Assembly (NCBI GenBank): GCA_001004905.1
Contig: LCRY01000002.1
Coordinates: 269,873 to 333,872 of the forward strand
Length of the DNA: 64,000 nucleotides
Direction of reading: 5' to 3'
From: Parcubacteria group bacterium GW2011_GWA1_56_13
Lineage (GTDB): Bacteria; Patescibacteriota; Minisyncoccia; Phycocordibacterales; Phycocordibacteraceae
Below, piece after piece: positions 35,623 through 38,108 of this stretch. Under the pieces are notes generated by a model that saw only the letters and a list, made by a program, of their open reading frames with translations, was not told the origin of the DNA and made no database searches. Numbering within the stretch: position 1 is the first letter of the stretch; each line of letters opens with the position of its first letter. The position numbers and the translations under genes were made by a program.

Positions 35623-35695
35623 TGGACCCGAGGGGAATCGAACCCCTTGCCTCGTGCATGCCATGCACGCGCTCTACCAAGTGAGCTACGGGCCC
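35623..35695 (-). tRNA. tRNA-Ala(GGC)
   Basis: Cloverleaf GGGCCCG...; loop ATGGCAT; G3:U70; CCA not encoded. Confidence 0.93.
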
Positions 35696-36381
35696 TTTTT
35701 ACTAAAACTCGTCATCACCTGTTGGGCTATTCGTTTCAGTTCCAAATCAACGGCCGAAGAGAAATAATCGATGCGGCATACTCCTTTGTACTCTCTCTTC
35801 TCAGAGACTCGTCCCAAAGTCCGTTTATCGACCCGCGCTCCGTAGAACTGACTAAGAGGAATTCTCGTTGTTTCTGACCAGAACTTTTCAAGTTTTTTGA
35901 TATCCTGGTCGGCCCTACACTGCAGGGTGCAGCGGAACTTTCGTTCGTCTAATTTGTAGCATTCTCTCATTAAGTTTACAAACATAAGCACTATCGCTGG
36001 ATCAGAATTGCCGAACATCAGCGAGCCACGAGATGATTTGGACCCTTCGGCGAGATAAAGGACGGCTAAGACAATCTTTCTTGTGCGATTGTCTGCGGCA
36101 AAAACATGGAGTAAATCCTTATTTTGCGCGTCCAAACTTTCAAAGAAGGCTTGTTGGCGCTCTTTTCTCTTTCTGGAGGAGATCTCCTGGGCTTTGGCGA
36201 AGTTCAACTTGTTCAGCTTTTGTACCTTAACGTGATAACTTCTCGGCAAAGTGATATTCCGGCACCAGTAACTCAATGTGCTCTTGGGAATGTCAATCTT
36301 CAGAAGCCTCTTGATTTCAGAGTACGTCTTGCCTTTCCGACGAAGCTGCGCCGCTCGTTCTTGCGATGATACCGGCAACAT
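35686..36381 (-). CDS. HTH plus LAGLIDADG-like protein, tRNA-associated
   Basis: LRRKGKTYSEI...KSTLSYW HTH; VLYLAEGSK...FGNSDP...FWS; stop codon lies inside tRNA-Ala(GGC). Confidence 0.65.
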   Translation of the reverse strand: MLPVSSQERAAQLRRKGKTYSEIKRLLKIDIPKSTLSYWCRNITLPRSYHVKVQKLNKLNFAKAQEISSRKRKERQQAFFESLDAQNKDLLHVFAADNRTRKIVLAVLYLAEGSKSSRGSLMFGNSDPAIVLMFVNLMRECYKLDERKFRCTLQCRADQDIKKLEKFWSETTRIPLSQFYGARVDKRTLGRVSEKREYKGVCRIDYFSSAVDLELKRIAQQVMTSFSKKGP

Positions 36382-36478
36382 GGGAATATTGTACCCCTAA
36401 TACCTCCATCGGCACTTGCGCACCGTGTACAATTTGTGGACCGTAGCGGATTTGAACCGCTGACCTCGTCAATGTTCA

Positions 36479-36588
36479 CCCCGTTAGATATCTCTTCGGT
36501 GGACCTGGGGGGATTTGAACCCCCTACCTCGTCAATGCGAATGACGCGCTCTACCAATTGAGCTACAGGCCCATATTATCTAACGGGG
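36479..36588. mobile_element. CCCGTTAG-family element carrying tRNA-Ala(CGC)
   Basis: Perfect 12-bp IR CCCCGTTAGATA / TATCTAACGGGG. Confidence 0.8.
36500..36572 (-). tRNA. tRNA-Ala(CGC), nested
   Basis: Complete 73-nt cloverleaf, loop TTCGCAT, G3:U70. Confidence 0.93.
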
Positions 36589-36665
36589 CGCGTGACGCGC
36601 TCTACCAGCTGAGCTAACGGCCCAAACATGAACAGAACGGACTGGCGGGCAGGCAGGTAAGGATA

Positions 36666-36767
36666 ACGCGCTCTACTGCAAGAAGCGAGGCGAAATAAAA
36701 TTCGATTTATTTCTGCCGAGCGCCGCAGCAGAAAGCCCGCAGGGCTTACCAGCTGAGCTAACGGCCC
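36666..36767 (-). pseudogene. tRNA 5'-half remnant with a 73-nt D-loop insertion
   Basis: First 21 nt identical to 36603-36623; insertion 36674-36746, then GAGCGCGT resumes. Confidence 0.7.
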
Positions 36768-36804
36768 GTGCGAAACATGCTAACACGCTCGAATATTATT
36801 TTCA

Positions 36805-36917
36805 TCGGGCCACCGGGAATCGGTCACGGATAATTTTCTCGCCGTCGCTCGAAAATTTCCTCGACCCCGTCTCGCCGTTCGGCTTGCTAGCCGAACAGTG
36901 CTCCGACTTTCGATTCC
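36805..36917 (-). repeat. tRNA-associated structured element, copy 1, ending in a duplicated tRNA-Pro 3' end
   Basis: GTCGGAGC...GCGAGACGGGGTCG...GTGACC then GATTCCCGGTGGCCCGA. Confidence 0.75.
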
Positions 36918-36919
36918 TT

Positions 36920-36990
36920 TCGGGCTACCGGGAATCGAACCCGGACTGCATGACCCCCAGCCACGCGTACTACCACTATACGATAGCCCG
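36920..36990 (-). tRNA. tRNA-Pro(GGG)
   Basis: CGGGCTA.../...TAGCCCGA cloverleaf, loop CTGGGGG. Confidence 0.9.
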
Positions 36991-37009
36991 TTTTCGGAGA
37001 TGTTCTGTG

Positions 37010-37099
37010 TCGGGCCGCCGGAAATTGGTCACGCAGAATCCCGTGCTCGGGATTTGCGCGACCCCGCCTCGCGCCGTCGCGCTCCGGCCTTCAATTCCC
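37010..37099 (-). repeat. tRNA-associated structured element, copy 2, ending in a duplicated tRNA-Pro 3' end
   Basis: GCCGGAGCG...GCGAGGCGGGGTCGCG...GTGACC then AATTTCCGGCGGCCCGA. Confidence 0.75.
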
Positions 37100-37134
37100 G
37101 ACGACATGGCGCCCTCTTCGGGAGGTGTTCTCTG

Positions 37135-37205
37135 TCGGGCCGCCGGGAATTGAACCCGGTCTACACGCACCCGAAGCGTGCGTACTACCGGCATACTCCG
37201 GCCCG
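37135..37205 (-). tRNA. tRNA-Pro(CGG)
   Basis: Cloverleaf, loop TTCGGGT. Confidence 0.9.
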
Positions 37206-37224
37206 ACACAGAACACCTCCTTGT

Positions 37225-37311
37225 GGTCACGGATAATTTTCTCGCCGTCGCTCGAAAATTTCCGCGACCCCGCCTCGCGGTTCGGCCTACTGACCGAACA
37301 TCGCTCCGGCT
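37225..37311 (-). repeat. tRNA-associated structured element, copy 3
   Basis: Shares GGAAATTTTCGAGCGACGGCGAGAAAATTATCCGTGACC with copy 1. Confidence 0.8.
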
Positions 37312-37350
37312 CGCACAAGGGCACGAGAAACATGCTTCTCGTGCCCCTTG

Positions 37351-38016: not shown

Positions 38017-38108
38017 TGGACCCGACCGGACTTGAACCGGTGACCCCTTCATTGCAAATGAGATGCTCTACAGCAAGGAGAGAGGCCGAAGGACTTACCA
38101 GCTGAGCT
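38017..38108 (-). pseudogene. Degenerate tRNA-Ala(TGC) with a 27-nt D-loop insertion
   Basis: TTTGCAA loop, T arm and 3' acceptor strand present; 5' acceptor strand lost; insertion 38069-38095. Confidence 0.75.

Follow-up and report, generated by a model that had tools for sequence, protein, structure and literature searches.

tRNA genes are usually taken to belong to the stable core of a genome and to serve large islands as landing sites. They can also be interrupted by introns, which are of the group I type in bacteria and of the bulge-helix-bulge type in archaea, and group I introns occur in tRNA genes of Patescibacteria. Short non-coding elements such as MITEs and MICs (Correia elements, Bacillus MICs, REPINs) have terminal inverted repeats, are present as dispersed copies with a candidate autonomous partner and sometimes carry cargo. 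In the tRNA-dependent lysogeny of actinobacteriophages, the phage breaks a host tRNA gene and carries a tRNA that shares its isotype (Guerrero-Bustamante and Hatfull 2024, PMC10865867); in the parts of that study considered here, the vehicle is a prophage with a tyrosine integrase and an attP/attB core of about 10 bp. The Ssn GIY-YIG nucleases, with their NTS/SRM hairpin repeats, are encoded by a small single-domain gene between inverted repeats that are also dispersed alone, and the authors note the IS-like architecture of this arrangement (Chenal et al. 2025, PMC11893778). The words "tRNA", "Patescibacteria" and "CPR" are absent from the main text of that paper.

We describe a 118-bp cassette that carries a tRNA gene and lies inside another tRNA gene, in a window of 64,000 nucleotides from the genome of Parcubacteria group bacterium GW2011_GWA1_56_13. 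Hereafter, the interrupted gene is called the shell, the carried tRNA the passenger and the whole arrangement a nest. The cassette behaves like a miniature disrupt-and-complement integration and fails a defining test of each family compared. As in tRNA-dependent lysogeny, the host tRNA gene is broken and not rebuilt at the junction, and a tRNA sharing its isotype is carried, which would compensate for the loss (PMC10865867, in the parts considered). Unlike that system, the cassette is only 118 bp long, has the tRNA as its sole gene, is bounded by inverted repeats without a shared core, and occurs in two orientations and in several nested layers. A candidate partner element in the same genome (C2:397889-398169) shows an Ssn-like layout, whereas the 118-bp cassette itself has no ORF; and while the portions of the Ssn study considered show cutting but not insertion (PMC11893778), here a tRNA is the cargo of the repeat pair, and 4-bp duplications are seen at the coding elements. 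The cassette shares with MITEs and MICs its short non-coding sequence, its terminal inverted repeats, its dispersed copies and a candidate partner. In contrast to them, its fixed ends replace 2 or 4 target bases with no duplication, its cargo is a tRNA, it is almost confined to tRNA genes that match the cargo, and the candidate partner is a GIY-YIG nuclease rather than a DDE/HUH transposase. Like tRNA introns, it sits in the anticodon loop and leaves the stems intact, but it has no self-splicing structure or bulge-helix-bulge, and the loop is not restorable in 65 of 70 nests. We found no description of nested tRNA cassettes in the part of the literature that was searched. The nests are real, widespread and apparently undescribed.

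The nest occupies positions 36437-36623 on the minus strand, where two tRNA halves flank a perfect 12-bp inverted repeat enclosing an intact tRNA-Ala(CGC) at 36500-36572 (ARAGORN; Rfam, 69.6 bits). Its parts and the features just upstream are listed 5' to 3':

36777-36785, minus strand: possible extended -10 promoter TGTTAGCAT, picked out by eye, which would drive the entire nest; relatives have similar TG-n-TAnnAT words immediately upstream of their Ala(CGC).
36661-36767, minus strand: separate, probably earlier scar in the sequence, with a displaced copy of the first 21 bases of the shell, a 67-bp hairpin-rich D-loop insert and a short D-arm remnant.
36593-36623, minus strand: shell nucleotides 1-31 of the resident tRNA-Ala(CGC), by sequence and match to genus alleles (5' strand of the acceptor with G3, D arm and 5' strand of the anticodon stem).
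36589-36592, minus strand: CGCG at cassette end B; by the end tallies the family has CYYG here (CRRG on the opposite strand), of which CGCG is a variant; the same pair of ends is present at L256 and in G931.
36577-36588, minus strand: inverted repeat arm CCCCGTTAGATA, belonging to a repeat family dispersed over the genome in 16 paired copies.
36500-36572, minus strand: passenger, an intact tRNA-Ala(CGC) with no encoded CCA (ARAGORN, Rfam).
36479-36490, minus strand: inverted repeat arm TATCTAACGGGG, by sequence.
36475-36478, minus strand: cassette end A, TGAA (TTCA on the opposite strand), the near-invariant family end.
36437-36474, minus strand: shell nucleotides 36-73, by sequence and allele comparison (CAT remnant of the loop, 3' strand of the anticodon stem, T arm and 3' strand of the acceptor with U70 and A73).

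The cassette therefore extends over 36475-36592 (CGCG, 12-bp inverted repeat, tRNA, inverted repeat, TGAA) and takes the place of shell loop bases 32-35, with the loss of TTCG. Its only gene is the tRNA, and it contains neither an ORF nor a direct repeat at its ends. We give its length as 118 bp because the four bases beyond each repeat belong to it. The 110 bp reported when the DNA was interpreted from its letters alone (the sequence-only reading) holds as the span from repeat to repeat, but not as the size of the insert; the gap between the halves as delimited in that reading is 115 nt. Other features named in that reading are plainly visible: the perfect 12-bp repeat, the G3:U70 pair of the outer gene and the CGTCA/TGACG anticodon stem common to the outer and inner genes. 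The outer gene also has A73, and all of its stems are paired (acceptor 7/7, anticodon stem 5/5, T stem 5/5). The 187-nt nest is predicted to fold as a cloverleaf atop a 14-bp rod within a second tRNA shell (-83.9 kcal/mol, z -5.38), with 0 of 200 shuffles equally stable. A scan with consensus promoters gave no minus-strand site and did not pick up TGTTAGCAT.

The host genome consists of 704 kb in 7 contigs, and the inner gene is the only Ala(CGC) among the 46 tRNA genes called by ARAGORN; the shell was not called when the intron search was enabled. Uninterrupted orthologs of the outer gene, whose search the sequence-only reading had proposed, do exist: among the 29 loci examined from relatives, Ala(CGC) is uninterrupted in 19, for the most part within the same Val-Pro-Pro-Ala-Ala cluster, and none carries the repeat. 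Compared with uninterrupted alleles of the genus, the shell is identical at as many as 65 of 69 positions; this holds for the allele of G886 too, a genome that ranks first by YchF among 200 of the genus. The passenger agrees with these alleles at 56-58 of 69 positions, with that of G886 at 56, and with the best of 18 genus alleles at 61. These comparisons show that the shell is the resident tRNA-Ala(CGC) gene, the syntenic ortholog of the Ala(CGC) of relatives, and the passenger is likely a foreign Ala(CGC) allele. The best other Ala-CGC passenger matches the one in the host genome at 56 of 73 positions. A Val identity for the outer gene, which had been entertained from the ACAT remnant of its loop, is ruled out by synteny and sequence; Val genes with CAC, GAC and TAC anticodons are present elsewhere in the genome, and the A that precedes CAT belongs to the cassette, as the final base of its end TGAA. 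The common anticodon stem, although genuine here, is no rule of the family: shell and passenger share theirs in only 7 of 72 nests, and in the genus this stem is just the usual form, present in 15 of 18 alleles. As the only Ala(CGC) called, the passenger may be required by the host, but Ala(TGC) might decode GCG by wobble.

Several other features were observed around the nest and elsewhere in the genome. The scar at 36661-36767 and a second stretch at 38017-38108 (both minus strand) are tRNA-Ala copies with hairpin-rich D-loop inserts that begin with AAG and finish with CTTGC. Each adjoins an intact gene or a shell, and similar scars are found in L007 and L019; the one in the relative L007 resembles 36661-36767 and lies upstream of Ala(CGC). 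Within 36800-37350 (minus strand), structured inserts lie behind the two tRNA-Pro genes, together with a second copy of each gene's 3' end that starts at the T loop. tRNA-Pro(CGG) is clamped by an imperfect inverted repeat, GGAGGTGTTCT...AGAACACCTCC, which this gene also has in G931 and L013. The nest and tRNA-Ala(GGC) are separated by a 231-aa ORF (35686-36381, minus strand) that has a helix-turn-helix at its N terminus, belongs to no Pfam family and reaches its stop codon in the opening bases of tRNA-Ala(GGC); in the ESM Atlas it groups with Patescibacteria clusters automatically named LAGLIDADG-domain proteins. Outside this region, a 62-bp copy of the repeat family (C3:55021-55082) lies at the start of a pilin-like gene, where the end GGGG and the duplicated TTCA encode G-F of GFTLVELMVVI, which we take to be a prepilin-like motif. 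ARAGORN also called tRNA-Ile(TAT), tRNA-Arg(GCG) and two CAT tRNAs in this genome, and no tRNA-Arg(ACG).

Searching CPR genomes for tRNAs between such repeats, another check named in the sequence-only reading, revealed a family of nests. A scan of GTDB for 5' halves of tRNAs with the repeat behind them returned 12 loci, 11 of them titled as Patescibacteria lineages; an intact tRNA lay directly behind the repeat in 12/12 and the second repeat was present too in 10/12. Scanning metagenomes for the repeat with a T arm behind it yielded at least 120 loci, with about 200 estimated. There were 80 loci with both repeats around a tRNA, from which 72 nests were parsed and 8 loci were not; removal of a near-duplicate (L049) and a poor parse (L094) left 70 nests, and 69 without L154, which has no 5' half, while L059, a misparse, was kept out of the wobble count. 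All of these numbers are loci and not independent events, and a few near-duplicate assemblies remain among them. Nest spans are concentrated at 103-112 bp, and the passenger isotypes are Val, Ala, Pro, Met, Thr and Gly, to which a further sample adds Ser, Leu, Ile and Arg. In the class, 41 of 401 genomes have a tRNA end with the repeat behind it, and in the phylum 5 of 401 do so under a stricter pattern; the reversed control pattern had 0 occurrences in the same genome scans. Within the genus, 2 of 201 genomes have the repeat at Ala(CGC).

The cassette takes with it the four bases that lie outside each repeat. The ends read TTCA...CRRG in 50 of the 72 nests and its reverse complement in 17, with three plain 4-bp duplications and two nests unassigned; among the 67 oriented cassettes, 58 have TTCA as their fixed end. 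The replaced target bases are CA or TG in 34/72 and otherwise a four-base word such as CGCA, CACA or TTCG, and a target-site duplication is absent from the 118-bp cassette and from 69 of 72 nests. The nest at 36437-36623 is in the reverse orientation, CGCG...TGAA, and the same two ends surround the Ala(CGC) cassette of G931 and a Pro(CGG) cassette (L256). Since they also surround a Pro(CGG) tRNA, CGCG is therefore an end of the element, and its likeness to the Ala anticodon is coincidental. At L271, CTTG...TGAG replaces a T-loop word in an Arg gene. Every passenger listed is on the strand of its shell, in both end orientations; consequently, the ends likely act at the DNA level. Other families of inverted repeats, for instance CCCGCCACAAATTT...AAATTTGGGCGGG, carry tRNA passengers inside former passengers (L045, L080, L157, L263), and the outer ends at L080 are the same TTCA...CAAG, which makes the four-base ends common to different repeat families.

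Shells commonly decay. In the sample found without requiring a shell, 3 of 31 shells are complete, as scored by a parser that cannot score T-loop insertions or long-arm tRNAs (about 6 loci), and the remaining ones show D- or T-loop insertions, deletions or lost halves. When the search required the T arm of the shell, all stems were paired in 39 of 72 shells. Former passengers have in turn been invaded by the same or other repeat families (L038, L045, L080, L092). The shell at 36437-36623 shows no decay beyond its loop, and we read this as a recent insertion.

Could these structures have arisen in another way? Misassembly of similar tRNA copies would be conceivable where tRNA genes are common to many organisms in a sample, as they are here, and no contig covers the entire nest. 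However, Logan contigs from the groundwater run X2 bridge the 3' junction (36436-36554) and the 5' junction (36528-36851) with more than 31 letters on each side and 0 differences, at depths of 10.5 and 14.3 compared with 7-13 in neighbouring contigs. This support comes from one run, possibly the source sample, and represents an independent assembly, not an independent sample, in which each junction is bridged by its own contig. Run X4 lists no piece over 36628-36815, a gap that speaks neither for nor against the nest. Another species of the genus has the same junction, and the layout recurs in dozens of unrelated assemblies. An assembly artefact is therefore so unlikely as to be almost negligible. 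The sequence-only reading had named a lack of reads across the junctions as the finding that would refute it; the bridging contigs show the opposite, and its claim that a tRNA-Ala(CGC) lies inside a split tRNA gene is confirmed. We also consider it highly improbable that the nest was built within the host genome, by duplication of a local tRNA gene and subsequent insertion of the repeat. The cluster is indeed rich in duplicated tRNA fragments, and the first 27 bases of the passenger are identical to those of the tRNA-Ala(TGC) of the same genome, but the T arm differs, and the passenger agrees with this gene, and equally with the shell, at only 58 of 69 positions. Across the family, shells and their passengers are 55-89% alike, and the same passenger recurs across unrelated shells. 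Another alternative, which the sequence-only reading had raised, is an RNA-level intron, in which the 14-bp rod is excised, the shell halves are rejoined and both tRNAs mature. The precursor is predicted to fold as a cloverleaf on a rod within an intact shell that retains all its stems, a cut after CGCG and before CAT would leave a 7-nt loop with the anticodon CGC, and the shell of G931 differs from that of the host genome by a compensated pair (6:67). U33 is conserved in tRNA anticodon loops, yet the restored loop has G33, as does every product of a single cut in this nest. One contiguous cut gives a valid loop (U33, anticodon, purine 37) in just 5 of 70 nests, or 3 of the 66 of the cassette type. 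Moreover, CGCG is an element end shared with the Pro(CGG) cassette, the two orientations would yield different RNA junctions, and the A6:U67 pair is already present in uninterrupted alleles of the genus. Within the window, Rfam detected no group I or II intron and no other RNA family at the site, and the predicted fold shows a continuous helix into a 2x5 internal loop, with no bulge-helix-bulge. Because of the two orientations, the few restorable loops (none here) and the rarity of complete shells, an intron is very unlikely, and the outer shell is probably dead. It is very likely that the passenger replaces it, and the earlier suggestion that both tRNAs mature is not supported.

The main rival, to which we assign a minor but real chance, is the spread of whole nests by homologous recombination: a few ordinary repeat insertions would have captured a second tRNA, and the nests would then have spread after DNA uptake, with the shell halves as arms and no cargo-guided enzyme. 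According to the parts of the Ssn study considered, an Ssn nuclease modulates natural transformation in Neisseria (PMC11893778). The junction register is fixed for each anticodon, with one register each for 13 Val-TAC, 10 Ala-CGC and 6 Pro-CGG nests, and the three nests with a plain 4-bp duplication have longer spacers and look like primary captures. In contrast, passengers that are 93-99% alike are found in shells only 72-83% alike, and shells that are 92-94% alike hold passengers 71-76% alike. Arms of 30-40 bp at 72-83% identity are a poor substrate for homologous recombination. The same two ends are also used at many registers, in both orientations, in at least 9 anticodon classes, and in the T loop (L270, L271). 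G931 has the same ends and a shell 64/69 alike, and holds another passenger (51.5/73). This genome ranks 25th by YchF and groups with the host genome in 0 of 200 bootstrap trees, in a tree of one gene whose well-supported branches allow a single origin for both genomes.

The passenger and its shell are matched. The wobble base retained in the shell equals that of the passenger in 24 of 24 nests, and the intact tRNA nearest to the shell shares the amino acid of the passenger in 62 of 69, compared with a mean of 22 and a maximum of 36 after shuffling. In the unselected sample, tRNA remains lie beside the repeat in 27 of 31 loci by alignment, and L250 has a complete shell. On inspection, tRNA remains were also seen at L262 and L267, and L273 was the only locus with none visible. 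The host genome contains 5,798 TTCA/TGAA words. As tRNA remains accompany nearly all unselected copies despite this abundance of possible sites, we infer some targeting to the gene that matches the cargo. Selection could explain a matching tRNA in the survivors, but not the rarity of free copies; the anticodon match can be explained by selection alone. Separately, G884 (L237) and G013 (L238) have a stand-alone Ala(CGC) of the type of the G931 passenger (L247) behind the same leader as the G931 shell, and this allele could be a collapsed nest that retained the passenger alone.

As to a possible mobiliser, the host genome has 14 further non-coding copies from the repeat family, 4 of them with an exact 4-bp duplication (TTCA, TCCA, TTCG, TTTA). 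The candidate partner element at C2:397889-398169, 281 bp long with ends CCCCGTGAGATAA, encodes an 81-aa GIY-YIG protein (Pfam PF01541, E 5e-12). Homologous proteins were located at 30 loci, 11 of which have the repeat family of the cassette in elements of 277-304 bp. An exact 4-bp duplication is present in 8 of these 11, and in 7 it is TGAA/TTCA; thus, the usual duplication of the GIY-YIG elements is the fixed end of the cassette. Their ends are one base off the exact cassette end (CCCCGTGAGA, TCCCGTTAGA), and a GIY-YIG element with the exact end CCCCGTTAGA gave 0 true matches in 251 genomes or among 23 viral matches, the sole exact-end match in the 251 genomes being a 103-bp non-coding copy. 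As far as the Ssn paper is considered here, related small GIY-YIG proteins cleave single-stranded DNA a few bases away from the hairpin belonging to each, joining is not demonstrated, and the genes resemble insertion sequences (PMC11893778). From these resemblances, the GIY-YIG nuclease is likely the mobiliser of the cassette. The cassettes replace bases whereas the nuclease elements duplicate four, and the chemistry may differ accordingly. In addition, GIY-YIG elements of 277-280 bp with TGAA/TTCA duplications occur at L199-L201, L215, L216, L218 and L220, several with the left flank ATGAA, as though inserted at a start codon, and three more small GIY-YIG ORFs are found in the host genome (C2:320541-320777, C2:353944-354180 and C2:444101 onward). 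Two other possibilities were set aside. A viral origin of the cassette was discarded after three viral scans, which returned one chance match, none, and 23 matches without a GIY-YIG gene between the repeats. The helix-turn-helix/LAGLIDADG-like ORF is not part of the cassette and, in G931, does not directly follow the nest.

Taken together, we consider it probable that the cassette is a non-autonomous mobile element, probably moved by a GIY-YIG protein, that targets the gene matching its cargo, so that the old gene is likely dead and the passenger works. This agrees with the proposal in the sequence-only reading that a tRNA gene was the landing site of an element bringing its complete replacement, in contrast to integrases, which restore only part of the 3' end, and extends it to a whole family. 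In our model, the donor would be a single-stranded hairpin whose loop holds a tRNA gene, and it would be inserted into a loop of the matching tRNA gene, probably with the assistance of the GIY-YIG protein. Two or four target bases would be lost, and the old gene would no longer decode. The passenger would likely be read from the upstream host promoter and freed by ordinary tRNA processing. Such processing normally consists of RNase P cleavage and 3' trimming. The shell would then decay, and the passenger would be open to invasion in turn. In this model we infer the insertion at the DNA level, transcription from the host promoter, release of the passenger, cargo-matched targeting and the role of the nuclease; no transposition, circle or pair of empty and filled strains was seen in our data.

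We also put forward, tentatively and as somewhat doubtful, a stronger hypothesis: the tRNA carried by a hairpin cassette of about 115 bp may guide the single-domain GIY-YIG nuclease to the matching loop, overwrite it and become the next target, which would drive the horizontal turnover of tRNA alleles across Patescibacteria. tRNA finders report the passenger alone, and nest events are therefore invisible in standard annotation. If the cargo does set the target, an 81-residue nuclease and a short DNA hairpin would constitute a programmable insertion system, and this would be the first role in transposition for Ssn-like GIY-YIG proteins. A minimal element seems to replace tRNA genes wholesale, and its signature is present in about one in ten sampled genomes of the class (41/401).
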